From positions 2,356,001 through 2,420,000 of the forward strand of contig NC_089434.1 of the NCBI RefSeq assembly GCF_026210795.1: 64,000 bases of DNA. Direction: 5' to 3'. A model generated the notes under the pieces. The model worked only from the letters and a program-made list of their open reading frames with translations. It did no database searches and was not told the origin of the DNA. Every line of letters starts with the position of its first letter. Position 1 is the stretch's first letter. The DNA comes from Rhizophagus irregularis (Eukaryota). The position numbers and the translations under genes are program-made. This document shows, piece by piece, positions 13,801-63,106 of this stretch.

Positions 13801-14042
13801 TTAGCTAATATTATTGTTATAGTGTATTTAATAAAATAAATTCAATAATATTATAAATTTAATATGATGTTTATTATCTTTAAATAATGTACATCATTAA
13901 TGGACATTAAAATTAGGTGATGCACATCAAATATTGTGACATCGGTAGTACATTGCAGGGTCCGATGTTCAGCGTTTCTTTATGATATACATTAAGTGAC
14001 TGATGTACATTTGATGAACATTTTTTCTGTGACTTCCTGATG
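10834..14042 (+). mobile_element. Non-autonomous TIR element (CATC-ended, CMC-like) carrying a micro-exon/intron array
   Basis: TIR CATCAGGAAGTCACGGAAAAAAT / ATTTTTTCTGTGACTTCCTGATG, with TT on both flanks. Confidence 0.8.
11903..12087. mobile_element. Tc1/mariner-type MITE (~185 bp); second copy at 46888-47068
   Basis: CAGTTTACC...TAGACTG termini flanked by TA; near-identical second copy in an unrelated context. Confidence 0.85.
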
Positions 14043-27720: not shown

Positions 27721-28871
27721 TGCAAAAATCATCATCAATGGTATTCGCCTCTTTCTTAAGTTAAAGACTCTGGACATTGGTGTCGCATATGCAATTATAA
27801 TAATATTGAAGTTGCAAAAGCATTGGCTCGTACTAGAGATGGAGAATGTCTTTCTTCAGAGTATTTTGACAATAAAAGTCCTTTACAGTGGAAGTGTGTT
27901 AAGGGGCATATATGGACTGCGAACTTAAATAAAATAAAAGATTACAACCAGTGGTGCCCTACTTGTGATGGGCGAAATCCGACTATATTTGATATGAAAA
28001 TTCTAGCACAAAAAAATAACGGAGAATGCCTTTCAGATCAGTATTATGATGCACACACAAAACTTTTATGGCGTTGCAAGAATTTTCATATATGGGAAGC
28101 TCCTCCACTAACTATTCTGAGAGGTAGCTGGTGTCAATACTGTGCTGGTACTGCAAAACTTGATATTGAAATTGCTAATCAAATTGCATTATCGAGACAA
28201 GGCCAATGCCTTTCAGTGGAATACAAGAATATAAGCGCACCACTTCTATGGGCTTGTCAATATAATCATCAATAGTAGTCCTCACTTAGTAGTATAAAAC
28301 ATTCTGATACATGGTGTCCATACTGTGCAAGTATGGCTAAACATACTCTTGATGATGCTAAGCAAATTGCTCTCACTCGGGGTGGTAGGTGTCTTTCAAC
28401 AGAATACAAAAATAATAAATCTCCTTTATTATGGATCTGTAAAAATCGGCATAAATGGTATGCAAAATTCGATAATATTGTGAATAAATGCTCATGGTGT
28501 CCATATTGTAGCATAGTAAGTATAAATGTGAAAATCTATGTCGTCAAATCTTAACAAAATATTTGGGCCCTCTATCAGAAAATCGTAAGCCTGATTTCTT
28601 AAAAATACCAGAGCATTCAATGGGGCTACAACTTGACATTCCTTATTATCACTATGGTTTTGCAATCGAAGTACAAGGAGAACAGCATGATAAATATATA
28701 GAATTCTTTCATAGAGGAAACCTGAATAATTTCATCAGACAGCAAGAGCGGAATCAATTCAAGAAAGAATTATGCGAAGAAAATTGCATCAACCTAAAAT
28801 ATGTCTGGTATTACAAAGATCCACATATAGTTATTCCAGAGTATCTTCGAGAACTGGGTCTTATAGAATAA
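27721..28871 (+). pseudogene. Tandem zinc-ribbon repeat protein with C-terminal PD-(D/E)XK (Vsr/DUF559-like) endonuclease, of the type seen in large DNA viruses
   Basis: Five W.C..GH.W.........WCP.C repeats, then LQLD....GFAIEVQGEQH...FFH.....Q.ER...K..LC....I.L; in-frame TAA/TAG stops, a frameshift near 28516, no introns. Confidence 0.75.
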
Positions 28872-28958
28872 ATATGAAACTTTAAATGCGTGTATTTCAT
28901 TAAAATCCTTATTTTTTCGATATAGTAATTTCATGCTCAGTCCAACCAAATGAGAAAA

Positions 28959-29692
28959 ATGGAGTATTATATATATCATCTTAACGAGACCAAAAATTTA
29001 AAGAATATGAATCACCCTGCAAGTCCTGCGTTTCCTTTTCATTTGTTAATTTGCGGTAGACCAGATAGTGGAAAAACTAATATGATTCTTAATCTTCTTC
29101 TTGGAAATAAAATTCAACGTTTATTTAAGGAAAAGAAAGGGTGCGGTATGTCAAAAATGATGATCTAGTCTTAATCGGAAAGCATATCCATGAACCCAAA
29201 TGGGTATTAGTAAAAAACTGCTATGAAATTTTTGCAAAGGGTCCAAAAGCATATCGAGAGAATGTAACATTTCGTGCGTTAAAAGCAGATGCGATTCCAA
29301 ATATAACTAAGTTCTCACCAGATAGAAACACTGTTGTAGTCTTTGAGGATCTTTGCGCTGAATCAAAAAAAATTCAGGATCGGATTGTTCCATATTTTAT
29401 CAGTGGCCAACATCAAGGTGTATCAAGTATATATGTGAGCCAGAAGTATACACAAACTCCTAAAATTATTCGCGAGAATATCACCCATTTAGCTTTATTT
29501 CGAGGCTCAGGAAGCCGGGACGATATCCATAGAATCGTGCGACAATATACGGATGATCCAAAAAAAGCATCCAAGATTATTGACAAACATTTGCGAGATC
29601 AAAATTTTGTGGTCTTCGATTTTACTAAGGCATTTGACGATCCTCTCGCAATTAGATTAGGTTGAAACACGCCCTTAAAATTGGATGAGTAG
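28959..29692 (+). pseudogene. A32-like (FtsK/HerA superfamily) genome-packaging ATPase, Polinton/Maverick or NCLDV type
   Basis: Walker [14 protein letters not shown], Walker B VVVFEDL, family motif [15 protein letters not shown]...PKIIREN; frameshift near 29135 and a probable TGG>TGA at 29663; no introns. Confidence 0.82.
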
Positions 29693-34934: not shown

Positions 34935-35541
34935 GTGATATAAAAAATGAATTGCGGTATCGGAATTCACTTTTTTATATTGATTTTATATATAAAAAGT
35001 GAATTGCGGTATCAGAATTCACTTTTTTATATTGATTTTATATATAAAAAGTGAATTGCGGTATCAGAATTCACTTTTTTATATTGATTTTATATATAAA
35101 AAGTGAATTACGGTATCGGAATTCACTTTTTTATATTGATTTTATATATAAAAAATGAATTGCGGTATCGGAATTCACTTTTTTATATTGATTTTATATA
35201 TAAAAAATGAATTGCGGTATCGGAATTCACTTTTTTATATTGATTTTATATATAAAAAATGAATTGCGGTATTGGAATTCACTTTTTATATTGATTTTAT
35301 ATATAAAAAGTGAATTGCGGTATTGTGATTCACCTTTTTATACGATTTTAATATAAAAAGTGAATCGCAATATTTCAAAAAAAAAATGTTTTGCACCATT
35401 TTTTTTTGATATTTTAATAAAAATCCTGAAATTTTTCAGGTTTCAGTTCAGGTCGGGTCAAACAGATAATCTGATATAACTTGACCTGACCTGACCTGAA
35501 AAAAAATTTCAGGCCAGGTTTATTAATTAACCTGACCTGAC
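34935..35541 (-). mobile_element. Partial hAT MITE with 52 bp tandem repeat (family of 44780-45737)
   Basis: AAAAAGTGAATTGCGGTATCGGAATTCACTTTTT units, GACCT repeats and terminus CCATTCAGAACTCTA. Confidence 0.75.
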
Positions 35542-35920: not shown

Positions 35921-38900
35921 TTACAAAGTACAAGCCAAAAAAATAAACCTAAACTTTTTTTGCTTCCCTTTGTCTTTATTACCACCTTGTTTCCATTTCA
36001 GACGTTTCTTTGAGACAATAGTATCGCTATTACAGCCACTACAATGTGGGTGTTCATCTTTTGTTACTCTATTGACGTCTAAGCTTCCACACTCAATGCA
36101 AACATCTGGGTAAATTCCGGCTGAGTAGTATGGTTTTTCAATTGGCGAACTACAGGACCATGAATCATTAACGAAAACTCTTGAAAATAACTCATATATA
36201 GAATCCTCAGTAGCATTATCAAGCTCTTTATCTATATCTATTTCAAATTCTTCATTTCTATTATCTAAGTCTTCTGGTTCGTTCTGTTCATCATTATTAG
36301 AAGCATCCTCCTTTTCCATATTTTCTTGATCATCCTCACCATTGTCTTCTGTAATATCATCACATATGTCTTGTTTTGGTGGAATAGCTATTGCCAAATC
36401 ATACGTATTATAAAATGACATACCGCAAGTGTAGAGTATTGTATCCAAAAATCCTTGAAGTATTGTCTTGTCTTTTTCAGAAAGTTTCTTTGCACTGAAT
36501 AAAAGACAAGGCTTCTCACATTCAACACAGCTTACAGTAATACCAACATTTTTTGCATGTACAGCAGAAGGGCAAAATGGCATAGTATGTTTTACTTTTG
36601 TTGTTTTCATCTTTTCTTTTGTTTTTTTGACATTCTTAAGCGAAGGTCTATGATCTTCCGTTGTTTGTTTACCATACAACTCTTCAAATGATTTATAATG
36701 CAAATCATCTCCAGGTACTGGATCCAGAAGTCTATGCAATTGTTCAAAATCTTCAGGCAAACAACAAGGAAGACGGCAGATGGTGCAAGTAGATTCACCA
36801 CATTTTTTGATTGTAAAAGAGTAATGTCTTGCAGTACAACAATGTTCTATGAATTCTTGTAGAAACAACTTCAAACAAAGGTTGTTAATTTAGTTTCTTT
36901 TTATGCAGGTATAAACTCAATTGATATTTAATACTTACCCTTTGTTTTATATGTTCTGCAGTATGGTCCTCATGGGTAACGCTATCATCCACAAGCTGAA
37001 TTGTTTCCCAGAATTTCTCCATTTCTATTTCTGATGCTGCAGTAAACGTTTTAAAGGGTTAGCTTTTAAGAGATTGGTGGTTGAATATATCATTAACCAA
37101 ACAGATCGGAGATTGAAGACTATCAATGAGATCTTCTTTCAAGGTAGGATTCTCCATGGCAATTTTGCGGATTTCATTCATTGTGCCACATTTGCTTATT
37201 AATTTCTCTGATTCATCATTCATTTCAGCTCGCATCAAGCCAACACTTTGCAATCCTAAATTTAAAATTGACATTATATGCTCAACAGGATTTTTCCATG
37301 AATGTTGTGGAGGAGTTTGAACGGCAACAAAATAATCAAGATCTAATGCAAGAAAAAGGCAAATATATGAAAGTTGGACACGGGCATATGTGCATCGGTG
37401 ATCTGGTCCACCATCAGTGTAGAGGCATAGTACAGGCTTATCAACAAGCTGTTCTTCAAGAAGTATACTATATAATTCTGTTGCATGTCGAAGAGGTGAA
37501 GAAGGCTGAAAGATTGGATCCTTTAACCCAATGCATACCTTTCCTGCATAGAAATCAATATTGATTGATTCAGGTATATCACATATCATTGCTACACTTG
37601 GTATTATTCCTGTTTTAGTGAAATCATGATCAGCAACTATGAATGTAGTGTCTTTACTAAGGTTGCTTGCCGAAACCTTCTTAATAACTGCCAAAACCTA
37701 TACGGAAAATGCCAAAACTATATTAAATCATATTAAAAATCCTGCCGAAACTTTACCGAAATGCTGAAACTCCCATTTGCCGAAACTGCCAAAACCCTGC
37801 CGAAACTATAGTAAACATATAGTAAAATCTTGCCGAAATTTATCGCAGGATTTTAGAGAGGTTTTGGCAAGCAACCTTAGTCTTTACTTACTACGACCTT
37901 CTTTCCTCTTTCTACTGCAACAACAGGAAATCCGGGTTCTCCAACTTTGCAACGGTGCTTGTCATCCAAAAAGACTAAATTTGTAATTTTGCGAAATTTA
38001 ACAGCAAATTCCTTTTCATAGCGAAACAATGCCGATGCATAGTGGATATCAGGATGAGAAGCCCGTAATTGCCGTGTTTGAACCATAAATTTTAAAGGTA
38101 AAAGATCAGTGAATTGTAAACTACTAAGTCGAGTTGGGTTTTTAGACCAAAATTGTAACTGCAACCATTGTGCACTAGGGATTGGTGTTTCAGGTGGGCA
38201 TTCACGCTCTATTTGGTGTAAAAGATCATTTACTGAGATTGCAGTAGCAAGATGTACAATTGTATCATGTCTACGTTCATCTACAGCAGTTACAGCATCT
38301 GCTGCCTTTCCTTCAAGAAACTGAGCTGCGATTTTCCAGAAAGTATCATATTTGCTAGGTTTTCCACTATTATGTTCACGTAGATTAATGGTGATATCTG
38401 GATCTCCAAGCTCCAAAAACATTTTAACACGTTCATTAACTCTTGCTTCATTTGCTGTTTCAGCCGCTGAGACATCTCCTGTTAGCATTCTATAGATTGT
38501 TCGAAATGATGATAGCTTGGCCTTTGGAAGAAGCAATTCACATGTACGTAGGTAGTTTATCCGCATTGTTCGTGTATGATAACGAGGTGCATTAGCTTGT
38601 AGTTGACTTACAATCTGTTTATTCTCTTGCAAAATCTTTATTTCAGTAGCTTGTTCATCGATTTTCCATATCAAGATTGCATTAAAAGCATTGTTTCCTG
38701 AGTTGAATTAGTACTCTCCAATTTCGTAGGTAAATGCATGAGATAAGCCCTGAATGTAACGCATTCTTTGCCTACATTAATTTATTCATTAATATCATAT
38801 ATTAAATATTTTGAGAATATTATTTTTTTTACTTACATAGGATCAGTTGGCAAGTATTCTTCAATATCAACTGGTTCCCATGGTAGTAAATCGATGAGAG

Positions 38901-39850
38901 ATTGTTCAAGATGATAATATTTATTCTTATCAATAGGTGTTATCCAAATATTCTTCTTATAAACTTTTATTGTTGTTACTTGATTAATAGTTCGTATAGG
39001 AATTTCTGATGCATGATTCTTAGCAGTAATATCACGTTTATGTTGCAGAAATATAATATAATTCGAAATAACAATAATGAAATCATCAAGTACATCACGG
39101 AGCCAATTAAAGTTTTCTCTTAAGATCCATGATAATGTAACATATGGAGCAAGAGCTTGACAATGCAAGTTTAATTCATTTGCATCAAAGGGTTTTTGTG
39201 ATTGCTTGTATGATTCTGGATTTGCGCGACTAAAAAACTCAAGGAAAAGCTTAGGTATGTGATAATTTCGTTCTTCTAGTTTCTTATGATCATGCATATC
39301 GATATACCAAATTGTTTCTGTTAAGCTAACAATAAATTCCTTTCCTTGCGTGTCAGCACATAATTTAGTGGGCCACCCACTGCCATGACTGTGGATCCAA
39401 TCAACAATATCATTACGCAATTTTTGCTTACGATTTACCTTTTCTGACTGTGGAAATGTTGGCAAATGCAACTGGAATTTGTGTGCATTTTGCATCAAGA
39501 TTGTAAATCCGTTTGATTGTACTTGAGTAGCTTCAGTATCATCAGATTTTAGTCGATAGTGTAAATGTATTCCTATATTTCTGGTAAGTTCTATGATATT
39601 ACAGTTAATACTGACTTGAATTGCAATGCTGGTTGGTATTTCACTTAATTCAACACGTTCTATTTTTTCAGAACTTGTTACGGCAATATTGCATTCAGAG
39701 GATAGTTTCTTATTAACTAGCTTTGTAAAAAAATCTTTTATTGACATTTCACAAGAAATAGGATGGATGTACCATCCATGGAGTATTCTTATCCCTTTAG
39801 AGATGCGAGTATTTACAAGTAGCATGTTCAAAAAAAAGGTATTTGTAAAA
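35921..39850 (-). pseudogene. Zator/TP36-like DDE transposase with introns near 38772-38834 and 36872-36938, interrupted by a MITE
   Basis: Motifs FLDDKH, ADHDF, YTDGGPDH and PPQHSWKNPVE; Cys-rich C-terminus; stop codons and the insertion at 37658-37879. Confidence 0.75.
37658..37879. mobile_element. 222 bp hAT MITE (inverted copy of 26940-27161)
   Basis: Same TIRs, 8 bp TSD GTCTTTAC. Confidence 0.92.
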
Positions 39851-41375
39851 GATTTGGAGAAAATACATCTTTTCGCGTTTTTTTATATTTAATAATGTAT
39901 CGCGAATTTGCTATAATTTTATTTCTATTAGGGGCGTAGTCTCAAAAAGGAAAGCTGAGTAATTGACCGATTTCCAATATAATAGTATATGCAAGACTCA
40001 TATTACTTTATATAAAATAACAAAAAGGGGTTATATTTTCATTTTTTTTTCTATATATAATATTTTATCCAAATGATTTCCCACGCCAATTCACCAAAGT
40101 AATTCTGCTTAACTATAAACTGTTCATTACCTGAATGAAAACTCGAAAATTAACTTGATATATATAAATATACAAATATATTGATTTATTATAATAAAAG
40201 TTTATACGGAATATAGTTAATAAAGAATCAATATTAATAATATTAACATGAAATTTTTGATTGGACGTCAGATTGTGGAACACATGACTAAATTTTATTG
40301 GTTAAAAAATTTTTATCCTTAGAAATAAAAATCCGGACGGCCGGGTCAAATCAAATAAATTTTGTTATGAGAACCAATTTATTTATTTTGTGCCGCCTAA
40401 TGAAAAACGTTAGGTTTAACATTTTTAACTAAAAAAAAAATTTTTTTATATATCTTTTAATAAAAAATATCAGATCTGACGTTTTTCATTAAAAAAACTT
40501 TTTTTTTATTTAATTTAATGAAAAACATTAGATTTGATATTTTTAGTTAAAAAAAACATTATTTTATGTTTCTTTAACTAAAAAAAAAGATTTTTCAATG
40601 AAAAAACATCAGATTTGACATTTATAATTAAAAAAAACTTTTGTTATTTTTTTTTAATGAAAAATGTCAGGTTTGACATTTTGATTAAAAGAAGACGTAT
40701 TTTATTATTATATTTAATGAAAAACATCAGATTCAGATTTTGGCATTTTTTATATATAAAAACATCAAAATGTTTTTTTTTAACCCAAAATATATCGAAT
40801 CAACAGATTGGGTCAGGTACCCAATTGTAATTAACCTGACCTGAGATCAGGTTATTAAATTTGCTACTTGACCCGAATTTTTTGGATCAACCTGTTAGGT
40901 CATCCGATCTGTCAAGTTAAATTCGATGTTCTAGCTCAAGTATAATTTGGAAAGAAATTATAGTTGAATATCAACTATCTTTTATAAGATGATTAAACTT
41001 AATGCTTTTTTAATATTATTGAATAGCATTAGAAATGCAAAGAATATAACATCAGCTTCATAATACTAGTTGATATAAAGATGTCAAAAAATTCAAGAAT
41101 ATTGTTAATTGTGATTGAAAAAAACTTTTATATCAGTTTAATGAAATTATTTTTTTGAAATATGATATGATGAGAATCTGAAAATTATGATTTCTTAGAA
41201 GATATATAAAGTTAAAAAATATATTGATTAAAAAGACTTTAATCTTTTAATATATATATATGGTTTATATAATAACTCAATATCATGTAGCTAGTACTTG
41301 AATTTGTAATTGTATATAATTTATATGTTTTTAAAAAAATGAATTACTCAAAAGATACAATAAAAAATTCTTTAA

Positions 41376-44779: not shown

Positions 44780-45737
44780 TAGAGCTCCGAATGGGTCAGG
44801 TCAGGTCAGGTTAATTGATAAACCTGACCTGAAATTTTTTTTCAGGTCAGGTCAGGTCAGGTTATATCAGGTTGTCTGTTTGACCTGACCTGACCTGAAA
44901 CCTGAAAAATTTCAGGACTATTTTTATTAAAGTATTGAAAAAAAATGGTACAAAACGTTTTTTTTTTAATATAATATTATGAAAAAAATGTTTTCGCAAC
45001 GTTATTATTGAAATATTAAAAAAAAAACATTACGAAACATTTTTTTAATATAATATTATGAAAAAACGTTTTCGCAACGTTATTTCTCGAAATATTGCGA
45101 TTCAACATTTTTATATTAAAATCATATAAAAAAGTGAATCCCAATACTGCAATTCACTTTTTTATATTGATTTTGTATAAAAAAAGTGAGTTGCGGTATT
45201 GCGATTCACTTTTTTATATTGATTTTATATAATAAAAGTGAATCGCAATATCGCAACTCACTTTTATTATATAAAATCAATATAAAAAAGTGAATCGCAA
45301 TACCGCAACTCACTTTTTTTATATAGAATCTATATAAAAAAGTGAATCGCAATACCGCAACTCACTTTTTTTATATAGAATCTATATAAAAAAGTGAATC
45401 GCAATACCGCAACTCACTTTTTTTATATAGAATCTATATAAAAAAGTGAATCGCAATACTGCAACTCACTTTTATTATATAAAATCAATATAAAAAAGTG
45501 AATCGCAATACTGCAACTCACTTTTATTATATAAAATCAATATAAAAAAGTGAATCGCAATACTGCAACTCACTTTTATTTTATAGTAGAATCAATAGTT
45601 TCAGGTCAACAGGTCAATCAGGTCAGGTCAATCTTCATACCTGACCTGAATTTTTTTTAAAAATCTCATACCTGACCTGAATTTCAGGTCAGGTCAGGTC
45701 AGGTTACCTGAATTTGGCTGACCTGTTCGGAGCTCTA
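44780..45737 (+). mobile_element. hAT MITE (~960 bp) with internal ~52 bp tandem repeats
   Basis: TIR TAGAGCTCCGAA / TTCGGAGCTCTA, 8 bp TSD CCTATAAC. Confidence 0.92.
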
Positions 45738-46700: not shown

Positions 46701-48172
46701 ACATTTACACAAGTAAATACTGTTCAACTAATATGATTGCTAATTGCACTGGTCAAAATCATTGTTATCGGGTACATACCGGATACGATATGTGTGCAAT
46801 ATATGCGATATACGTGTATAATATTTAACAATACTACATATATCGGATCCCGATAAGATAAGTGATAAAGATAAAATCTGTGACATACAGTTTACCCTTC
46901 ATATAGCGAATTTTTATATAACGAATCACGTGACGCTTAGCCAATAAAATATGTCAATTTTCCCTCGCTATAATGAAGTAACCAATCAAATTCTTCAAAT
47001 TCTTCGTTAACTTGCTATAACGAATTTGAGGTGCAGAACGGTTTCTTCGCTATATCAAGGGTAGACTGTATATTGTAAACATCATGTACATATCTTATAC
47101 ATATCGGGTAGTCAAATATCAGTCACATATCATATATTTATCAAATACCCATATATTATAGTGAAATTCGATCAAAGCAAAGGATCATCATACTTTCTTC
47201 TTGATCGCCCATTTTTTCCCAAGAAGACATAAATGAAAAATATGAGGATTTTTTGCCTTGAGTGATAGTAAAAGGACTTTTCAACGTTATATGCCAATTG
47301 TTATGAGGTCGATTTGCCTATGAACTCCTTACGGCTTATATTCGTGTAGACCGTTATCACAGTTGGAGCTTACCAATAATACTGTAAGATAGCAGTTCTA
47401 TACGAATGTTCTCCTGGGATTTCTGAAAGGTTAAAAAGTAGTGCGTCTAGGTTCCTACGCCTTTAAAGTCTAACTGGCCAAGTGGTTCGCAGACTGGATC
47501 AGTATTTCTTGGAAGAAGCTTATCGACCAACGTACTTCTTGCTATTTGAAGTTGTTAACAAGATTTTTAGTCTTCTAAATAAGAATACGGAGTTAAGGTG
47601 TATGTTTGGTGTTTTTTACTCAGGTTTTTCTCATTGCACTTCGAGTTTTCCTGAGGTTTATGTCTTTATTTTTTGTTTTTTGTTTTTCTTGGTCGCTTTT
47701 TTCAGTATAACCTTATTTTCTTTGGGAGGTGGGGGATACTGGAAAATTTGATCATCATAGTATTAAAGGCGTTACTAATTTCAAAATCGATGATCACTCG
47801 GGCAATAAGAGTAGACAGGTTAGGTACCGCAGTTTTAGTAGATGCCGATCAAAGTAGTCACATGTTAGACTATTATTGGATTAACTTATCTAGGTTGATC
47901 TTAGGTTGAATGATTGTTCGTAATGAGGTGGGTGTCCTCCGTTTGGGATCGTTCGCAATGAGATAGATGTCCCTTCAGGATTACACGATACTAAAAAGTT
48001 TCTCATCGGCTGGACTGCATGACACTAAAAAGTTCTCAGAAGCCTTTGTGAAATAGGTTTATTATCTATAGTATGTAGTCAAATAGGGAAAATTGAATTT
48101 TATGCGTTTTTGATGGTGCTAATGGTAGCTCAGAGGTTCTTTACCGATTCTAGGAGTGGGTACGGCGCTGGA

Positions 48173-51100
48173 TAAAGTTGCTTGCCAAAACTAGAAGGTT
48201 TCGGCGGGATGGCATATGTGAAACTGCCGAAACTAGTTTCACAAAATTGGTCTAAAATGTTGAAATGCCGTAACTGCTGAAATCTGCCGAAACTGTCTAA
48301 GCTGCCGTAATTATTTTGGCGTAGTACATCATATGATATACATATAGTTTCGGCAATATTATGAATTATGATTATTTTTGGCATGGATTTTTTTTTTGAC
48401 ATAATGCCGTATTCAGCCGTATTGAATTTATATAGACGTAATTGCCAAAATTTGCTGAATTTATCGAATTGTCAATGATTTACGCCAATCCGGCACAGAA
48501 AAGTTATATTATCAGACAGATTGCGTATTATAAATCATCTGATGATCTTTTTTTTCTTGTACCGGACAAAAATTATGAGGTAAAGAAAAGAGGAGGTCCA
48601 ACCAGAAAGTTTTTATTTAAAAAAAGTAATAGTTTATTTTTCGTTTTGTAGGGTTGCCGGACAAAAGCACGACTGGACTTTTTGAAGTAAGAAAGGACTG
48701 GAAAAGGATCCATTTTAATAAATTTATTTATTTTTTCTTTATTGTAAGGTTACCGGACGAAAAACATGACCGGACTTTTGAAAATGAGGTAAGGAAGGGT
48801 TGAGGGAAAGGTTTTTCGTTATTTTTTATTTTAATAAATTTAACTAATTTATTTTTTTCTTTTTTGTAGTGTTGCTGGACGAAAAACATGACTGGACTTT
48901 GGAATTTAGGTAAAAGAGGGGGCTGAGGAAAGGTTTTTCGTTGTTTTTTTATTTAATAAATTTAACTTATTTATTTTTTTCTTTTTTGTAGTGTTTTCGG
49001 ATGAAAAACATGACCGGACTTTGGGATTTAGGTAAAGAAGGGGCTGAGAAAGGTTTTTCGTTGTTTTTTTATTTAATAAATTTCTATTTTATTTTTCTTT
49101 TTGTAGTATTGCCGGACGAAAAATATGTACAGTGTAAACGGTCGAATATCAAGCACGAGAAGATGATAAAATTCAATCACCAAATGTAATTGCCAAATAT
49201 TAAGAACGAACAAATTAATTATGAATTGGCGTAGATGGATAAATAATTAGCCGAAAAGGATAAACATTTAAGAAGAGCAATGATCTACATGATGTAATAT
49301 TTATCGGATGATTAACAAAGAACCAATAGAATAATTAGAGTCGATCAATTGCGGCTTAGCAATCTTTAACAATAAGAACAATTAGAAAGAATAATTATAA
49401 GCCACAAAAGGTAGATCATATAAAATGGAGGGATAGCGGACTAAAGGAACACGCATAACGAAAGTACATACATTCATTCTTATGTTTTATTATTTCTTGC
49501 GGACATTTATCTTTCTTTCTTGAAAAATCTTCATTTAATATTTCTTTTATTTTAAAGATTTCTAAAAAATTCATTCTTAAATTTTATTGTTTTGAAGATA
49601 AACTTCTGATTACAAAATTTACAATATATCTTAAATTTTACTTCCATAAATAATAATATAAAAAGATAGTGTAAAGATGGAACATAAAAAATAGCATATT
49701 AAAAGATAGCGTATTTAAAATATAGATAGCATATTAGAAAGATAGTTCAAAGATAATATGTAAAAAGAACATAAAAGATAGTATATAGATAGAATAGAAA
49801 GTAGCATAAGATTTGTATAAATAGAGAGCGGAATTCAAAGTAATTCCACAGTTCTCATCCACAGAACTCAATAAAAATATAAGTTTTATTTAATTATTTG
49901 TTAGTAAAGTTTAATATTAATTAAAGGTAATAGGTTCGCCCTAAACTTTAATTAATGTTCGCTTAATTAATTTTAATTGAATAAAATGGAAATTTAAGAT
50001 GAATTAAATATACACTTTTGGAAAGTAATAATTCGTAGCGAGAGCTATTGAAGTTTGAAAGTAAAAGTAAAAAGTGGATATAATTTGGGGAAAATTTAGA
50101 GAAGTTAACTTTTATTTTATATTCATCAGTAATGTTTTAGGAGTCAGGATCCACGTGAAATCCTTATTTTCTGTAAATAGTAAAGATTCGCGTGGATCCT
50201 TCCCCACCTCAACGGATCCTTGGAATTAAAAAAGTTTAAAGAATCCCTAAGGATAGGAAAGAATCCTTAGGGATATTTATTTAATTTTTATTAATAGATT
50301 ATTTATTGATTTTTATTAAAATCTATTTATTAATTTATATATTTAATGTGTATTTATTTATCTTTAATATTATTGTATATATTATGTATTTCTCCAGTTA
50401 ATAAAAATAAAACAATAATTTAAATATAAAATACAAAAACAACTAATAAATAAAGTTAAAAAAAAATAATTATGTAAGTTTCACAATGAAACTTATTGCT
50501 TTTCCTTAATTCTTCAGTTGATATCCAGACAACCTGAAAAAAATTAAACATTATTTAACGCTTTTATTAAAAAGGAAGCAATTGAAGTTTCGCAATGAAA
50601 CTTACCTATTATTAAATTATTTTCTCTCTAATCGATACCCCAGATCATGGTATAATGTCAATAGCGTCATTTGATTTTGAAGCAGGAGGGTTATCGATCC
50701 TAATTGCTTGCATGGCTTTTACAATATCTGGGTGATTTCCAATTGAAAAAGTATCAATCTGTTCGTGGATTCACTAATAGCTGATCTATAGCAAGCGATA
50801 GTATTCCCCTATTGAAACCTACTCGTCGAAAAAAAAGAAAAAGATTGAAACGTTAATAAATGTTTTATTAAAATAAATAATTTAAAGAAGCCTTCACTTA
50901 CCAAGTTCCCACACGTCTAAAGAAATCAAAAGAAATGGCCATCTAAAAAGAAAAAAATCAAACATTAGTAGATATTTTGCTACAGTAAAATAAAAATTTA
51001 AATAATTCCCCACCAGTTTCTAACGCGTTAATGACCCATTCCATCTAAAGAAAAGAAAAAATTGAATTTTTTTGTTTTCAATACACTTGTTGAAACAACT

Positions 51101-53576
51101 TATAGTGCGTGTCTAATACTGAAATTAATCTGAAAGATGTCATCTTCGATATCTTTTTTCCTTTGCCATTATTCTGTAAGTATTTTACGTCCAGAGATAT
51201 TTAAAAAAGAAACGCCTAAAAAAAATGAAAATGAGCAGTTAGTAATGCTCGTTAATATAAAAAAATCTGAAATAACTTCTTTTTTTGTTACTTACCGGTA
51301 TCCAAGTTGAAAAAAACACCTAAAAAAGAAAAAAAATGAACATTTAGTATTCGTCAAAATAAAAAAAAAATTGAAAAAAATTTTTTATGAAACTTACTGG
51401 TATCCCACATCAAAAAATTCCTAAAAAAGAGAAAAAACAAACAATTAGTAATGTTCGTTAAAATAAACAAAAAGAAAAAAATAATTTTTTTTACATACCG
51501 GTATTCCGTGAAGAAGCTCAAACCCACCTAAAAAAAGAAAACGAACAGTTGGTGATGTTCGTTAAAATAAATAAAAAGAAAAAAAATAATTTTTTTTTCT
51601 TACTTGCCAGTATTTCACGTCCAAAAAAGTCTCAAAATCACCTAAAAAAGAAAAACGAACAGTTAGTAATGTTCGTTAATATAAAAAAAAATGAAATTTT
51701 TTTTGTTTACTTGTAAAAGTCCTATTCGAATATCCAAACCCAAAAAAGAAAAAATAGAATAGTTAATAATATTCATTAATATGAAAAAATGAATAATATT
51801 TTTTTACTTGCCGAAATCCATGTTCAAGTACCTGAAAAAAAGGATGTCTAAAAAAAGGAAATAAAATGAAACATTAGTTAAGGCAACATATCATTAAAAT
51901 AAATAAAAAATTAAAGTGTAAGCTTACCGAAATGCCACATGCAAAGGAAATCTGAAAGAACCTAAAAAGAAAAGACCCGACCGTCTAAAAAAAGAAAAAT
52001 GAAAATGAAACATTAGTTAATGTTTCGTTAAAATAAAAAAAATTGTAAAAAAAAACTTGCAGCAAGAAAATCTGAAAGAATCGTCTAAAAAAAAGAAACA
52101 ACTGTTAGAAACCATTCATTAAAAGAAAGGAAAAAAAAGTTTAAAACTTACCAGAATATCACTTTCAAAGTAATCCAAAAGAACCGTCTAGAAAAAAAAA
52201 ACAAAAAAATGAATTAGAACCTGCTCATTAAAAGAAATAATTAAATATATAAAAAAAAACCTTACCAAAATCTGACTGCTGACTAAAAAAATAGTGGAAC
52301 ATTATTTAATGTTTCATTATGGATTTTGTAGAGAGAGGGGAAAGAATAGGGTAAAGAAATAGAACGAGAAAGGAAAAAGGTGAGAGAGGGAATAAAGACG
52401 AAAGTTTTGTAAAAAAAAAATTCCATATCAAGATATCAGATGATCGATCATTAAACATTAAGATTATAACACGTGATACACGTAATTTTTTAATTTTAAA
52501 ATAAAAATAAAATTTTTTAAAGATTTAGATATAAGGAATATATAAGGATTTTTTATATGGAATCTTTAAAGAATCTTTAAGGATCTGTAAACTTATAGAT
52601 TCCTTAAGGGTATTTTACAAATCAGTATGGATTTTTAAAGAATCCATAAAATTACAGATCCTTAAGGATTCTAAAGCAATTTATGGAATCTTTAAGGATC
52701 CATATTCCAAAAAATTTACTGATGTTGCTTGATGTTTTATATTACTAACGCTATTTATGTTGTGAACCAAAAATGTTGCTATATGTTGTTGCAGGTTGTT
52801 CGTTGATTATGTTGTTATTAATTATGCTGTTGATTATTTGTTTGTTCGTTTATTTGTTCGTTTGTTCGATTATTCGTTCGTTCGACCATGAGAAAGCCCG
52901 TTCGATGTGGCAACTCTGTAAATTGATGACAGAGGGAATTGGGGGATCTCAACGGATTTATAAATTAAGGTAAAGGAGGACTGGTGAAAGTTTTTCGTTA
53001 ATTTTTCATAATTTATGAAAAACATGACCAGACTCTTAAAATTAAGGTGAGGGGGGTCGGAAAAGGTGTTTTCATCATTTTTTTTAATAATTTAATTGAT
53101 TTTTTTTTCTTTTTGTAGGATTGTCAGATGAAAAAATATAACCGGACTTTTGTAATCAAGGTAAAGTACCGGGAGAAGTGTTTCGTTATTTTTTTTTTTT
53201 TGATAAATTTAATTAATTTATTTTTTTTTATGTAGAATTCCCAGAAAAAAAATCACAACTGTTGCATTTGTTAGAATTTTTTCAATAATAATATTATTAT
53301 TAGAATATTACAACGTTGTTTATTTACATGTAAATTTATTAGAGACTGAAATTAAAAATAAAATATTTGGAATGCTGTAATTATGCCGAAATTCATATAA
53401 AATATTATTATTTATTATGCCAAAACTACGGATAAACTTGTTATAAAGGTTTCACAAATTTTGGCAGTTTCACAAGTTTCGGCAGTTTCGCAGTTTCGCA
53501 GTTTCACAGTTACAGCACTATATGTAGAGTTTCTCCTTTCGGCATTAGGCCAAATAGGTTTCGGCAGGCAACCTTA
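48173..53576 (+). mobile_element. Non-autonomous hAT element related by TIR to the 222 bp MITE; carries micro-exon units and nested inserts
   Basis: TAAAGTTGCTTGCC / GGCAGGCAACCTTA, TSD GCGCTGGA / GTGCTGGA; the flanks join up to match the uninterrupted copy near 19010. Confidence 0.85.
50124..52724 (-). mobile_element. Non-autonomous CATC-ended element with a minus-strand micro-exon array
   Basis: TIR CATCAGTAA.. / ..TTACTGATG, GGATCC/GAATCC subterminal repeats and TT on both flanks; absent from the host copy at about 42920. Confidence 0.8.
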
Positions 53577-56699: not shown

Positions 56700-57144
56700 T
56701 AATATAACAACAAACATCTTACCAATATATCCATTAAGTCTCTCATATGAAAAAAGCCAAAAACTATATATGGAACCATAGTCATAAGCTCACAGCAACA
56801 GTCAGAAATATGAAGTGCAAGGTATATGTTGCTTGTTATAAATTCTGGCCCATATGTTCTTTCTATAAGGTGAGCCATGTCCTTCAATCTCTCTTGCGCT
56901 TTTCTCAGATCATCTTCTGTAATAAATCTTGCTACTAAAAGATTCAGTTACATGCTTGAACAAAATGTCCTAAGATTTTTCTATTATTATTATCTAACAT
57001 ATCCCATAGTATAGGCGTGGAATAAATCATAATAAAGGTTTTCCATTGATCAGCAGTTAAATTTGAAAAACCTTCATTTCCAATTGCAATCTTTGGGGGA
57101 TTCTACCGATATCAGAAAATAATTCAATATAATCCATTCTCTTT
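56700..57144 (-). pseudogene. CMC (EnSpm/Mirage-like) transposase fragment
   Basis: SDIGRIP.KI..G..GFSNLTADQWK.FI.IY...ILW, YGPEFIT.N..L.LH..DC and YG..YSFWLFSYERLNG; frameshifted. Confidence 0.78.
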
Positions 57145-60100
57145 TATCAGGAAATTTTTTAAGATGCAGAACTGCGGAGATCTGTAAAATTAGCAGATCT
57201 CCGCATTTTTTTTGTGAATTTATGCGGAAGTCTGTGATTTTGCAGATTTCTGCTTTTTATTTTTTACAAAGTTATGCAATAATCTGCAATTTTGCAAGTT
57301 TCCGATTTTTTATGTATTAATTTCTGCGGTAATCTGCGATTTTGCAGATTTCTGCTTTTTTTTATGTGAAATTTATGCGAAAGTCTGCAATTTTGCAGAT
57401 TTTTGCTTTTTTTTCATTAAAATATCAGTTCGATCTGCAATCTCATCATTGATTTAATATTTAAACTTTAATTAACTCTAACTTGATTTAATACCTAAAT
57501 GATTTTTTCTACAATACTCTTTAAAAAAAAAAAACTTTACAAGACTTTAAAAAAATAATTTTTTCTACAACACTTATTACTAAAGAAAAAAACTTTGTGA
57601 AATAATTTTTCTACAACACTTTTTAGGAAATAATCTGTTAAAAATTTTAAAGAAAAAATATTTCTATTATTTTTTAAGCTTCGAAACTTATCAGAGAAAT
57701 TTTTTTTTTAAAAAAAAAAATTTATTTGCAAGGTTCGGAGTCTTTAAGGCAAATTTGTCCAACATTTGGCACATAATCTGCAACATGCAGGAAAATTAGA
57801 ACCAAAAAAAGGAGTCGTATTCCTTTTTTTCTTTGAAAAAAAAAATTTTTTTTTAATGAACGTCAGTTAACGTTCAGTTTGTAAGTCAAGAACATAATAG
57901 AGTCTATTGTCAATTTAATTTGGAGGTATATCACCTCTGAAACTTTAATTATTTTAGAGAAAAAAAAAATTTTTTATATTATATAGGTTCCAGATGGAAT
58001 CTATCGATGATTTTAGTTGGAATTCGGAGGTATGCTTACCTCCGAAATTTAATTTATTTTTTTAAAAAAAATTTTTTTTTATATTATATAGGTTCGGATA
58101 GAACCTATCAGATATTGGAATTCAGAGGTATGCTTACCTCGAATCTTAATTAATTTTTTTTTAAAAAAAATAATTTTTTTTATATTATATAGGTTCTGGA
58201 TAGAACCTATCAAAGATATTGGAATTCAGAGGTATGCTTACCTCCGAATCTTAATTTATTTTTTTAAAAAAAAATAATTTTTTTTATATTATATAAGTTC
58301 CGGATGGAACCTATCAAAGATATTGGAATTCGGAGGTATGCTTACCTCTGAATCTTAATTAATTTTTTTTTAAAAAAAATAATTTTTTTTATATTATATA
58401 GGTTCCAGATGGAACATCAAAGATATTGGAATTCGGAGGTATGCTTACTCTGAATCTTAATTAATTTTTTTTAAAAAAATTTTTTTAATTTTTTATTATA
58501 TAGGTTCCAGATGGAACCTATCGAAGATATTGGAATTCGGAGGTATGCTTACTCTCCTGAATCTTAATTTATTTAAAAAAAAAATAATAATTTTTTATTT
58601 ATATTATATAGGTTCTGGATGGAACCTATCGATGATTTTGAAATTCGGAGGTATACTAACTTCTGAATCTTTAATTTATTTTTTAAAAAAAAAATAATTT
58701 TTATTATATTATATAGGTTCCGGATGGAACCTATTGATGATTTTTGGAATTCGGAGGTATGCTTACCTCCGAATCTTAATTTATTTTAAAAAAATAATTT
58801 TTTATTTAACAAACGCCACTAATGTTCGTTTTTCATATTTTTGCTCCCAAGCTAAAGTACGGCTCCGGACATTTTTTTTTAATTAAGTTATCTAACGAAC
58901 GTTGCTAACGTTCGATTATAGATCCTGGACACTGAAGAACGGTTCCAGACATTTATTTTGAAGGTAAAACCTTTACCTTCAAAATTTTTTTTTATATTTT
59001 TGTTTAACAAACGTCGCTAACGTTCGTTTTTTATTTTTTTTAGGTCCTGAACGCCAAAGTACGGCTTCGGACATTTATTTCAAAGGTAAAATTTACCTCC
59101 AAATTTTTTTTATTTTATTTATACCTACGAACGTTAATTTACGTTCGTTTTTACATTTTATAGGTCCTGGACGCCAAAGTACGGCTCCGGACGTTAATTT
59201 CGAAGGTAAAACCTTTACCTTCAATTTTTTTTTTATTATTATTTAACGAACGTTAATTAATGTTCGTTTTTATATTTTATAGGTCCTGGACGCCAAAACC
59301 AGCTCCGGACTTTACTTTGAAGGTAAAACCTTCGAAAAAAAAAAATTTTTTTTTGTTAACTTTATTGACGAACGTTAACTAACGTTTCGTCTTATTTTTT
59401 TTAGATAAAAGAAGCCGAAACTGAGTTTCGGGTTCCTATATCAAAGGTAAAACAAACCTTCGAATTTTTTTTTCTTTTTATTTAAACGAACGTTCACTAA
59501 CGTTCATTATTCTTTTTTTTTAGGTAAAGGAAGCCGAAAGAACTTCCATATCAAAGGTAAAATCTTCGATTTTTTTTTTATTATTTTATTTAATGAACGT
59601 TACTAATTCTAACGTTCATTTTTTACTTCAGTATTACTGCACCGTACGAAACCGAAAGGCAGGTTCCGGTCTCCTATTTTGAAGGTAAGGCTTCAAAATT
59701 TCATTTTACTTTTTTTCTTTTATTTTAGCGAAAAGTTTACTAACGTTTCATTTTTCTTTTTGTAGGACTACGGCATTCCGGACGCTTTGTGGGCTCCATT
59801 TCGAAGGTATATTATCCTTTATATTCTTCGAAAGTGTTTATTTTTATTAGTTTTTTTTACAAACGTTAACTAACGTTCGTTTTCATTTTTGTAGGTCCAA
59901 GACGCCGAAAGTACATGTCTCGGATTTAATTTCGAAGGTAAATAACTTCGAAAAAAAAGGAGTCTCTTTTTTTTTTAACGAACGTTCACTAACGTTCGTT
60001 TTTCTCTTTCTTTGTACGCTGAAGGACTTTAATTTCGAAGGTAAACTTTGATTTTATTTTTATTTTTTATTTAATTTTTTTTTGTTTATTTTAAGGAAGC

Positions 60101-61782
60101 GTTATTAACATTTCAATTTTCTTTTTTTAGGTTTCTGGCTCTCCTGAATTCTCCTGGACGGAATTTCGAAGGTATTTCTTCGAAATTCTTTTATTTTTTT
60201 TATCTTATTGTTGTAAAAGAACGTTTTTAACATTCTTTATTTTTTTTTTTTAGATTTTCGGCTCTCTGGTTTCAGCCTGGACGGAATTTTCAACATGGTT
60301 AGTTTCGTAACGAACTTTTCGTTACGAAACTATTTTTTTTTTATTTTATTTAAACGAAACGTTACTAACGTTTCGATTTCTTTTTCTTTTGTAGGTTATC
60401 CGGTAGCCACCTGGATTGGATGGGATTTCGAAGGTGAAACTTCGAAATTATTGTATTTTCATTTTTTATTTGAACGAAACGTAAACTAACGTTTCGATAT
60501 TATTCTTTCGTAGGTTGGCGGCTTCCTGTAACCCTTCTGAAAAGAATTTCGAAGGTATACTTCGAAATTCTTTTACTTTTTTTATTATTTGTGACGAAAC
60601 GTTACTAATTTTTCAGTTTTCTTTTTTTTTGTAGTTTGACGGCTTCCTGTGAACCTTTCCGATTACAACATTCAAAAAGAATCCACTCTTCCATCTTTCT
60701 CCGTCTTCGTGACGATATGCAAATTTTTGTTAAAAAACTATTACTTTGGAAGTTGAGTCTTCTGGAATGAATTTTGAAGGTAAACTTTGAAATTCTTTTA
60801 CTTTTTTTGTTTTTTTATTTGAACGAAACGTTTACTAACGTTTCAATTTTCCCTTTTTACGGCTGTCCAGATGCCTTCTGGATGAAATTTCGAAGGTAAA
60901 ACTTCGAAAAAATAATTTTTTTTGTTTTATTTTAACAAATGTTTATTGACGTTTGTTTTTATTTTTGTAGATCCAGGATGCTGCCGGACTTTCATATCGA
61001 AGGTAAAACCTTCAAAAATTATTTTTTATTAATTAATTTATTGACGAACGTTAACTAACGTTCGTACATCTTTTTTTTTAGGTAAAGGAAGCCGAAAGAC
61101 AAGTTCCGGACTCCCATATCAAAGGTAAAACCTTCCAAAATTATTTTTTATTAATTTATTTGACGAACGTTAGTAACGTTCGTATTTCTTTTATTTTAGG
61201 TCCTGGGTTCCCATTTAAAGAACTTCAAAAGTAAATACTTTGAAGTTTCTTTTTTTTTTACTTCTTTAACAATCGTTATATTAATGATCATTTTTTCTTC
61301 TATGTTTAGGTCCCAGACTGCTGGGTTAGATATTTCAAAGCTGCTTGCTTCGAAATTTTTTTTCGTTTGTAGGTATCCGTTGTTCGTTGGAATCGAACCA
61401 ACTGGAACAATATCCAAACTATTAACAACATGTAAATGTGCAGTAAAGAGATGATGAATAGCAAGTATCTAGTAATAGATTTCAATTGTATTTGTAAACT
61501 TGTTAATATATAATAAAAAAGTAATTTTGATTATATAAATAAATTAGTAATTAATGCAATAAATTAATTTGTATTATTGTGACGCAGATTTTTACTGAAA
61601 AAAATTGCTGAGGTATTTCGAAGGTTTTTATTTAAAAATCTGCGCAGAACTTTGTTATTTATAAAATTTGCGCAGTTTTTTATTGGATTTTTCCTCTAAT
61701 GTTTTGCGCCAGGGTATAAAATCTGCGCAGATATAATTTCTGAAAATCTGCGCAGATCTGCTCCCCAAAAAATTTCCCGATG
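57145..61782 (+). mobile_element. Non-autonomous CATC-type element (~4.6 kb) with the longest micro-exon array
   Basis: Ends TATCAGGAAATTTTTT / CCCCAAAAAATTTCCCGATG match 19347-23530; no TSD match on the right. Confidence 0.75.
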
Positions 61783-62310: not shown

Positions 62311-63106
62311 GAGAAAGCAAAAGGAATGATATAAAGAATAAAAAGAATAAAAAACTGATTAGTATTGTAACTACTATTTAGTAATAAAAAAACAATAACA
62401 ATAAAACAGTAAGAAAGCAAACCTTACCTTAAATTCCTTGAAACTATTTGAAATTATTGTTATCTAAAGAAGACGAAGTTAGCAAAAAGCAAGCAAAAAA
62501 AATAAAAAAAATTTATTTTCAAAACAAAAATATTTTAACGTGTAAAAAGTGTGTAGCATGAAAATCACCTGTGAACTTTTACGGGGTAAAATTAAAATTT
62601 TAATAATTTGCAGATCAAGGTGAAATTCACCAGAGGTAAATGTAAAATTAATCCTATTTTTTATTATTTTTTTAGGTATTGGTGAGACCCTTTACTTTAA
62701 ATTAGTAAATTTCAAAAATTTCATTTTTTTGAAACTTTAATTTTTTTTACTTTTTTTTAAAAAATTTTTTTCTTTTATTTTGTAGGAATTTTTGGGAATA
62801 ATAAGTTTTGAAAGTAATATTTACTTTTGAAACTTTATTTTTTTTTATTTTGTAAATATCGGTTGTGATCTTTGAAATCATAAATTTCAAAAAAAAAAAA
62901 TTCTTTTCAAAACTTCAATTGATTTTTTTAATTTTTTCTTTATTTTATAAATATCGGTTAGAACCTTTAGGCAGAATAGTAAGTTTTGAAAAGGATCATG
63001 TTTTTTTACAACTTCAAATTTTATTACTTTATTTTTATACAGACACATCAGGAGTCAATTATAACAATTTTAATATGATCACGTGTTAGTGCATTAAAGT
63101 ATATAA

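Follow-up and report, generated by a model that had tools for sequence, protein, structure and literature searches.

Why would a DNA transposon of Rhizophagus irregularis be filled with tandem micro-exons and introns, and are these introns spliced? The question is raised by a 4.6-kb non-autonomous DNA transposon with PlavakaB-like ends at 57145-61782 of a 64-kb stretch of DNA, which was analysed as a whole and is hereafter called the window. A first-pass annotation of the sequence had placed about 30 tandem micro-exon/intron units, filling a non-autonomous transposon, at 57900-61380. We count 30 unit positions from 57926 to 61372, among them the two units quoted as examples (exons 58504-58542 and 59164-59205); the array does fill the transposon, but the extent first given is too short, as the element ends at 57145 and 61782. 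Its parts are as follows.

57145-57169, plus strand: left terminal inverted repeat; its first base is T where sister copies, which start CATC[AG]G, have C.
57170-57450, plus strand: left subterminal repeats with a period of ~50 bp, common to the copies at 19347, at 45868 and in L001.
57926-58756, plus strand: subfamily S1, made up of 8 ~104-bp units; exons span 36-43 nt, the donor AG/GTAT lies in a hairpin of 10-14 bp, and a CTAAC branch motif is lacking.
58757-61372, plus strand: subfamily S2, with 22 positions for ~120-bp units; most exons measure 23-53 nt, and the donor TTCGAAG/GTA lies in a hairpin.
61373-61520, plus strand: predicted terminal exon, called from sequence, first 60 nt kept in L001, 3' end inferred.
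61590-61782, plus strand: right terminal inverted repeat (61758-61782, final letters CCCGATG), preceded by the subterminal repeats of this side.

That the element is a non-autonomous transposon, as first proposed, is borne out by its matching ends, by three further relatives within the window plus L001 (a metagenome contig holding a second full copy), and by the loose ends of contigs from other copies of the focal element, which fall at 57145/57146, with G at 57149 in most. Dispersed copies with the focal family's ends and differing flanks lie at 19347-23530, at 45868 (left end) and in L001 (72-4007). L001 was retrieved as the sole metagenome contig matching a branch-hairpin motif; the same motif gave 0 matches among viral contigs, and a motif of two adjacent S1 exons at spliced spacing gave 0 among metagenome contigs. 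The termini match as inverted repeats at 19 of 25 bases in the focal copy and at 21 of 25 in the copy at 19347-23530. A TT target-site duplication flanks the latter, one of three complete copies of this family (family A); no clear duplication is seen at the focal copy (ttt/gat) or at L001 (gaa/taa). No stop-free frame of at least 120 aa lies wholly inside 57145-61782, and hence a transposase gene is absent; three low-complexity frames of the adjoining repeat extend into the right end of the element. The window copy looks like an ageing one.

Since the element holds no transposase, its putative assignment to PlavakaB is drawn from the ends alone. (What is said here of published systems refers to the available parts of the sources cited.) The PlavakaB/CMCT clade (Kojima 2025, PMC12730594) has CA..TG termini, and PlavakaB termini are given as 5'-CATCA..TGATG-3' with a target-site duplication of 2-3 bp. 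Families B and C of the window have exactly CATCA..TGATG with a 2-bp TT duplication, and family A starts with CATC[AG], ends with CGATG and shows TT at 19347-23530. Family A differs in ending with CGATG instead of TGATG, in the lack of a clear duplication at the focal copy and in the absence of transposase; intron arrays are not mentioned in the available part of that paper.

The splice signals of the array are largely intact and lie on one strand. At the 30 unit positions the donors comprise 28 GT, 1 GC and 1 deleted site, and the acceptors 26 AG, 1 TAA, 1 TAC and 2 deleted; four sites in S2 are mutated or deleted, the last unit has the GC donor, and overall about 1 in 10 splice sites is broken. 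Introns measure 61-97 nt (27 curated). For comparison, the host gene TTC39 has 8 introns of 63-85 nt, and its control splice yields P0001 at 598 of 599 residues. Exons of the array measure 23-53 nt, apart from a single 145-nt exon. In this AT-rich DNA, the AATAAA at 61512 makes a weak poly(A) candidate at most. A splice-signature scan of the element returned 26 hits on the plus strand and 0 on the minus strand, upholding the single-strand arrangement originally described, vs. 2.95 ± 1.8 after dinucleotide shuffling (maximum 10, n = 200) and 6.8 ± 2.6 after shuffling of 12-nt blocks (maximum 14, n = 200). The CTAAC branch motif, first said to be usual, holds as CT[AG]A[CT] for the 3' subfamily (12 of 20 introns) but not for the 5' subfamily (0 of 8); the looser YTRAY lies 12-45 nt upstream of 27 of the 28 acceptors of the window array, with weak placement in S1. 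When ten unit groups are pooled, with sites placed by hand from homology, broken ones counted and three deleted ones excluded, 88 GT and 5 GC are found among 97 donors and 87 AG among 95 acceptors. Exonic AG and G at +5 are complementary across these donors (33/33/20/7; Fisher p = 1.8e-5, with units that are non-independent paralogs), and genuine U1 sites show such complementarity. The array thus combines the traits of spliceosomal U2-type introns, namely GT/GC..AG ends, a pyrimidine tract, a branch motif and host-like length, and GT, AG, T-tract and branch spacing are kept across unit groups of very different sequence.

Beyond the first-pass description, these signals are predicted to lie in hairpins. 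Among the 27 introns, a stem covers the 5' splice site in 22 and the branch point in 13 (z < -2), vs. 0 of 8 host TTC39 introns; in S2 the branch motif sits atop a second hairpin. In 34 of the 53 units assigned, the branch A falls within 0-2 nt of the end of the loop, and this register is held by different stems and base pairs in five unit groups, across families. In the windows tested, hairpins are rare or missing in S3 (1 of 20 donors, 0 of 20 branch points) and S5 (0 of 10 and 2 of 9) and missing in S8 (0 of 3 and 0 of 3); a hairpin-free subfamily of L001 has G/GTGA donors in 3 of 3 and CTAAC-type branch motifs in 2 of 3. Positions 600-1720 of L001 contain 22 branch-type hairpins with just one T-tract YAG, and therefore hairpins also multiply without exons. 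Palindromic tandem arrays of 71-bp and 52-bp units, free of splice signals, sit in other elements of the window. Rfam models of structured RNA families, among them snoRNA hosts and miRNA, gave 0 matches at gathering score over the window and L001. A mirtron or Dicer substrate was rejected because the stems reach only ~7-14 bp, as was a CRISPR-like repeat/spacer array, since the exons are mutual paralogs and not unique spacers.

A search of sequencing runs listed no RNA run containing the sequence. Read depth was examined over 57100-58772, i.e., the first eight exons (S1). Raw reads of an S1 paralog in run X22 cover four exons (4, 6, 7, and 8) and end at donors; the status of X22 as an RNA run is the tool's guess, and the depth arithmetic concerns perhaps 6-16 fragments of this one run. 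In each of nine tested bin/direction cells (8 from X22, 1 from X19), coverage equals or slightly undercuts what exon-limited reads predict, and it stays below the unspliced minimum: for example, 559 letters were seen where 528-560 are expected if exon-limited and at least 673 if unspliced, with 0 against at least 221 and 20 against at least 242 in other cells. One further cell, X22 minus at 57996-58051, is a misfit: its 85 letters exceed the 68-72 of exon-limited coverage but fall short of the minimum of 94 for unspliced RNA (computed by hand). Reads running beyond the end of the stretch number 0 of 18, vs. 69% expected if unspliced. Depth in AT-rich intron bins, mainly partial matches of unrelated transcripts, was left unused. 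None of the 15 joints listed, out of 34, is GT..AG, and the splicing claim therefore rests on this depth arithmetic. In the poly(A) run X19 about one read falls on exons, and among X22 exon pieces the first mate is on plus in 35 vs. 4, which would mean antisense RNA in most stranded libraries. Expression of the array is very low. Indirect evidence thus points to low-level splicing of an S1 paralog; "very heavily" spliced, as first worded, is unproven, because the data amount to a few fragments spread over 4 of the 8 exons examined.

Comparison of the window copy with L001 addresses both selection and coding. S2 is 80.7% identical to L001 over 1039 nt, and the substitution-rate check suggested at first pass, carried out on this pair, gave 0 changes at 26 splice dinucleotides (excluding one acceptor deleted in the window copy) vs. 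91 at 804 other non-CpG positions (11%; P ~0.04, by hand); together with the signature scan, this agrees with the earlier statement that splice signals persist. The array encodes no conserved protein, as had been suspected from the varying exon lengths. Internal exons divisible by 3 number 10 of 27 in the window copy and 3 of 14 in the less decayed copy, and in 4 of the 7 pairs of orthologous exons the length difference is not a multiple of 3, shifting the frame. Exons contain fewer stop trinucleotides than expected (34 vs. 53.5; 12 vs. 18.1), and in silico splicing of the window array leaves a 147-aa stretch without a stop (P = 0.043). A search with one frame of the longest L001 exon, covering proteins 71-2000 aa long, retrieved no homolog; this counts as weak evidence.

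Similar arrays, not mentioned at first pass, occur beyond this element: seven array-bearing stretches, in five distinct transposon families, lie within the window. The family B array terminates in a captured tyrosine-recombinase fragment, and its micro-exons are strung together by two NCBI gene models, P0041 and P0042, which read exon 51319-51296 in different frames. Both are single-member clusters; P0041-P0043 have no match in Pfam, and P0043 has no meaningful match in PDB.

On these grounds, the array probably consists of real introns that are spliced and non-coding, and we lean toward the view that selection maintains the ability to be spliced in active copies. Because similar arrays occur in several unrelated nearby transposon families, splicing itself may be a putative tool of these transposons for evading silencing; our confidence in the whole statement, a spliced non-coding cargo with a putative anti-silencing role, is tentative and falls somewhat short of even. 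In the proposed mechanism, the array would be transcribed at a low level and spliced into non-coding RNA, and nascent RNA crowded with spliceosomes would be less accessible to Argonaute-guided silencing, so that the array is retained. Units would multiply by tandem duplication and pass between families, and the short hairpins could keep folding local and tune access to the donor and branch point. The introns would benefit the element as a barrier to CpG methylation and co-transcriptional RNAi; in Caenorhabditis elegans, introns act as a barrier to nuclear RNAi (PMC5554785). A selected role of the RNA is opposed by the breakage of about 1 site in 10, by subfamilies devoid of hairpins and by the 22 exon-free hairpins of L001. 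As a counterpoint to shielding, hairpins on splice signals would slow splicing, and slow splicing triggers siRNA production in Cryptococcus (PMC7175516).

This counterpoint leads to a quite unlikely alternative, in which the hairpins stall splicing on purpose and feed spliceosome-coupled RNAi, yielding siRNAs against the element and captured fragments. The predicted pairing of donor and branch A and the recombinase fragment within one array would suit it, as would SCANR, which turns poorly spliced transposon transcripts into siRNA (PMC7175516), the promotion of heterochromatin by retained introns in fission yeast (PMC5322907) and the location of 41% of R. irregularis sRNA loci in unannotated regions (PMC8647823); however, the few reads seen are exon-limited and not intron-retaining, and self-silencing cargo poorly fits an occurrence in five families. 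A neutral origin is somewhat less improbable, if still doubtful: captured exon-intron pieces would have expanded in the manner of minisatellites, through the slippage and template switching that short palindromes favour, with splicing a by-product of inherited signals. DNA transposons are known to capture gene pieces (PMC2572040), as the recombinase fragment of family B illustrates; the 22 hairpins of L001 multiplied without exons, the 71-bp and 52-bp palindromic arrays have no splice signals, ~10% of sites are broken, and expression is very low. Against it stand the persistence of GT, AG, T-tract and branch spacing despite very different unit sequences, the 0/26 vs. 91/804 substitutions, a branch-hairpin register kept with differing stems in five unit groups, and the finding of such hairpins in 0/8 host introns.

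A very unlikely reading places the function in DNA, with CpG-centred palindromes docking a transposon-encoded anti-silencing or transposase protein, VANC-like, and splice signals incidental. VANC targets are tandem repeats that differ among related elements (PMC5735166), some PlavakaB families encode TET/JBP dioxygenases (PMC12730594), and the L001 hairpin run is free of exons; yet the strict single-strand grammar (26 vs. 0), the canonical donors and branch motifs of hairpin-free subfamilies and the exon-limited reads argue otherwise, and no cognate protein was identified. Less probable still are decayed micro-exon peptide genes, alternatively spliced into variable peptides like schistosome MEGs. 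In their favour are the sizes of the exons, many of which measure 39 or 42 nt in S1/S2, the scarcity of stops, the 147-aa stretch and the P0041 and P0042 models; against them are the 3/14 frame-symmetric exons of the less decayed copy, the frameshifting differences in 4/7 orthologous exons, the conflicting frames, single-member clusters and missing Pfam matches of the two models, and the longest L001 exon, without a homolog in one frame. Combinatorial peptides are accordingly the weakest of the three functions initially proposed, because exons are not frame-symmetric and a neighbouring-array exon is read in two frames.

Known systems resemble the array in part. Pack-MULEs are transduplicating elements that carry gene pieces. 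Turmoil-1, a transduplicating element of C. elegans (PMC2572040), is likewise a DNA transposon with exon-intron material, as is family B with its recombinase fragment; unlike Turmoil-1 and the Pack-MULEs, the 30-unit, frame-free, one-strand array has its own hairpin design, occurs in several families and has no identified donor gene. VANDAL elements of Arabidopsis (PMC5735166) carry fast-evolving, family-specific non-coding tandem arrays with a proposed anti-silencing role, but VANC arrays are protein-binding DNA motifs, whereas the conserved grammar here is that of splice signals, with no known partner protein. Splicing of repeat transcripts decides RNAi silencing in the C. elegans intron barrier (PMC5554785), SCANR (PMC7175516) and the introns of Schizosaccharomyces pombe centromeric ncRNA (PMC5322907); in all three, pathways of the host act on ordinary introns or on single ones, and none, as far as described there, is a transposon of tandem introns. 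Schistosome MEGs (PMC4350168) share long series of very small exons, but MEG exons keep frame symmetry and code for secreted proteins that bear signal peptides, while the array exons are asymmetric, frameless and inside transposons. Glomhopper (PMC13465315) has introns within recombinase genes, not these arrays, and the available part of PMC10234402 does not mention them under the terms searched. We found no description of such arrays in the literature; Repbase, Dfam and supplementary repeat libraries, outside the search, may hold them unclassified.

Whether splicing marks RNA as "self" or as a silencing target is an open question with opposite answers across organisms, and nearly all-intron elements, present in numerous copies whose sites are partly intact and partly broken, offer a natural experiment. 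Gene finders are misled by them: two public "hypothetical proteins" derive from one array, which bears on orphan-gene counts in R. irregularis. If the density in the window is typical, the arrays would be a large unannotated share of a model mycorrhizal genome. The boldest form of the proposal, possible but rather doubtful, is that evolution has equipped R. irregularis transposons with an "intron armour" built of modules that can be exchanged, in the form of structured, frame-free arrays shared by Plavaka-like and hAT-like families, whose sole product would be spliceosome loading, putatively shielding against or tuning RNAi and CpG methylation. With seven array-bearing stretches in these 64 kb, the arrays might account for an appreciable share of the uncharacterised repeats, which reportedly occupy 24% of the genome.

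We worked from the window together with a single metagenome locus and four sequencing runs. Inside the focal element, a family A non-autonomous DNA transposon, we counted 30 unit positions at 57926-61372, as the first-pass annotation had proposed in describing about 30 tandem micro-exon/intron units. Donors read GT in 28 units and GC in one (one deleted), and acceptors read AG in 26, TAA in one and TAC in one (two deleted). That all signals share one strand was confirmed by a generic splice-signature scan, which returned 26 hits on the plus and 0 on the minus strand; 200 shuffles each by dinucleotide and by block gave 2.95 ± 1.8 and 6.8 ± 2.6 hits, respectively. Of the 20 introns in the 3' subfamily (S2), 12 carry the CTAAC-type branch motif, described earlier as usual; none of the eight in the 5' subfamily (S1) does. 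Intron length is 61-97 nt (27 curated), vs 63-85 nt in the host TTC39 gene, whose TTC39/Iml2 exon (4998-5831, Pfam) is 100% identical to R. irregularis protein P0001 and which, with its eight introns spliced out, recovers 598 of 599 P0001 residues.

Folding prediction reveals a feature omitted from the first-pass annotation, namely putative hairpins over donors and branch points. The predicted fold has z < -2 in 22/27 introns at the donor (40-nt window) and in 13/27 at the branch region, vs 0/8 and 0/8 in host gene introns. Among other unit groups, donor hairpins are predicted in S4 (5/5) and branch hairpins in S4 (4/5), S6 (6/13) and S7 (2/2); they are rare or absent in the tested windows of S3, S5 and S8. 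In groups with a branch hairpin (S1, S3, S5 and S8 excluded; 55 units examined, 53 assigned), 34 of the 53 have their predicted branch A within 0-2 nt of the loop end. Alternative stem pairs, e.g. A-T 15 / G-C 11 and G-C 15 / C-G 10, occur among 30 hairpin-bearing units, a sample that leans towards structure because it was picked for having the branch hairpin.

The branch-hairpin motif also retrieved L001, a metagenome contig with a complete second copy, which over 1039 nt shares 80.7% identity with 60425-61431. Splice-dinucleotide positions differ between the copies at 0/26 sites vs 91/804 other non-CpG positions (hand-computed P about 0.04; one acceptor deleted in the window copy lies outside the count), which in this one copy pair supports the claim that splice signals persist. 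CpG decay, 14 to 6 against the window copy, suggests that the latter is the more decayed. A hairpin-free subfamily of L001 has G|GTGA donors and a CTAAC-type branch motif in 2/3 introns. At 600-1720, inside a long predicted intron, L001 carries 22 branch-type hairpins in tandem alongside just one T-tract YAG, a run that speaks against a purely splicing-based view.

Read placement covered 57100-58772, the first eight exons. Among sequencing runs that contain the stretch, none is recorded as RNA, a result that weighs neither way. No GT..AG joints appear among the 15 listed of 34, and depth consists mostly of partial matches within AT-rich introns. Reads 99% alike to the stretch are so few (11/399 in the poly(A) run X19, 13/250 in run X22) that the sampled strains may be without the exact focal copy; X22 depth tables contain paralog reads with G>A differences on exons 4, 6, 7 and 8. 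In few fragments (4-5 starts per variant) from one run of presumed RNA status, point depth set against bin totals equals or falls slightly short of what exon-limited coverage predicts, and stays under the minimum for unspliced RNA, in 9/9 tested cells (for example, 559 letters vs 528-560 exon-limited and at least 673 unspliced; 20 vs 28-42 and at least 242; 0 vs 0 and at least 221); one further cell, computed by hand, does not fit (85 vs 68-72 and at least 94). At 58727, 0/18 reads extend beyond 58772, vs an unspliced expectation of 69%. Since the first 16 intron bases are 11-16/16 identical among S1 units, sequence divergence is an unlikely cause of this clipping. X19 holds about one exon-limited read, and exon reads show a first-mate bias of 35 to 4, whose meaning depends on library type. 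Splicing of S1-type units in at least one copy is, in our judgement, likely.

The focal element ends at 57145 and 61782, with 19/25 terminal bases matching; contigs from other copies break off at 57145/57146. No clear target duplication was found at the focal copy or L001. The CMCT clade accommodates elements with CA..TG ends and 2-bp duplications, and termini of the form CATCA..TGATG with 2-3 bp duplications define PlavakaB (excerpts of PMC12730594); because the focal family terminates in CGATG and is without transposase, "PlavakaB-like" is the furthest supportable label. Besides family A, arrays of the same design occur in four further families within the window.

Related copies and arrays
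19347-23530, sister copy with the focal ends, TT duplication
45868, sister copy with the focal ends, left end only
L001 72-4007, sister copy with the focal ends
50124-52724, family B, array on minus strand, ends exactly CATCA..TGATG, TT
10834-14042, family C, CATCA..TGATG, TT duplication
48173-53576, family D, 8-bp target duplication with one mismatch
1-566, family E, right end at 566, array on minus strand, element cut by window edge
62620-63040, further S3-like array outside any assigned element

Of the roughly 14 micro-exons in family B, three have GC donors; family C holds several unit types; the array of family D, which we take to be hAT-like, is interrupted by two nested insertions; and the array at 1-566 has donor and branch hairpins in a different sequence. 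Unit types appear to cross between families, S5-like units being seen by eye in both C and D and S3-like units by BLAST in A and at 62620-63040. Across ten unit groups taken together, hand-placed by homology with broken sites counted and three deleted sites excluded, donors are GT in 88/97 and GC in 5, and acceptors AG in 87/95. Donors without exonic AG mostly have +5 G, and vice versa (33/33/20/7; p=1.8e-5, overstated because units are paralogs); real U1 sites show the same complementarity.

In the sister copy at 19347-23530 the cargo differs: palindromic 71-bp units are arrayed in tandem at 19795-20621, and after them come about 22 exon-intron units (two S2-like) whose donors read GTAAGT. 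Palindromic 52-bp tandem arrays at 34938-35365 and 45108-45586 have no evident splice signals, which makes hairpin minisatellites common in this genome's repeats. A CACGTG/CCAAT-containing insert in family C (11900-12091) recurs at 46885-47072. Elsewhere, a GC-richer block (27760-29665) contains a treble-clef zinc finger repeat ORF (DUF4379) adjoining a weak Pox_A32 packaging-ATPase match, slightly below the curated cut-off, and may represent a polinton- or virus-like insertion in decay; four long ORF pieces at 35921-39882 (minus strand), free of Pfam matches, resemble on visual inspection a transposase gene broken into fragments.

The earlier doubt about a conserved protein is borne out, with internal exons divisible by three in 10/27 cases (window) and 3/14 (L001), and 4/7 orthologous exon pairs differing by a non-triplet length. 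After in-silico splicing, the longest stop-free stretch is 147 aa in the window (P=0.043) and 106 aa in L001 (P=0.27), against 300 shuffles. The longest L001 exon, in one frame, found no homolog among proteins of 71-2000 aa, and Rfam gave no match in the window or L001. Stop trinucleotides are rarer than expected in all exon frames (34 vs 53.5 at 57987-61339; 12 vs 18.1 at L001 1829-3389), an unexplained shortage that allows for a possible coding past. Micro-exon peptides (excerpts of PMC4350168) are the least probable account. Many exons of these stretches appear by eye to self-fold. NCBI models from other strains, P0041 and P0042, join family B micro-exons much as predicted here but disagree with each other on the reading frame of exon 51319-51296; they show that gene finders accept array splice sites and are no proof of RNA splicing. 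The long exon of family B holds a fragment of P0043, a protein with tyrosine recombinases as its nearest atlas clusters.

Judged from sequence, the conserved features of the array are those read by the spliceosome, on a single strand and with no protein product. As such cargo sits in several non-autonomous families, the simplest selective account is benefit to the element. We tentatively favor a role in which arrays would act as an intron barrier against silencing, to the carrying element's benefit; this reading was chosen because introns impede nuclear RNAi in C. elegans (excerpts of PMC5554785) and R. irregularis possesses both CpG methylation and small RNAs derived from TEs, with uncharacterised repeats at 24% of its genome (portions of PMC8647823). 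Its main rival, neutral capture and expansion of exon-intron cargo, seems to us rather unlikely. More doubtful still is that the arrays would trigger siRNAs through stalled spliceosomes, by analogy with Cryptococcus or fission yeast (parts of PMC7175516 and PMC5322907), and VANC-like DNA binding arrays (by analogy with parts of PMC5735166) would be quite improbable, only marginally less so than the peptides.

The kind of element that carries the arrays is already known, as are spliced TE-derived RNAs. A comparator for exon-intron material carried by a DNA transposon is Turmoil-1 (portions of PMC2572040). We found no description of such arrays in the literature covered, which is limited to open-access articles and does not extend to Repbase, Dfam or the repeat libraries in supplements. 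These multi-family, structured, frame-free intron arrays would represent a new kind of system should selection on splicing be confirmed.
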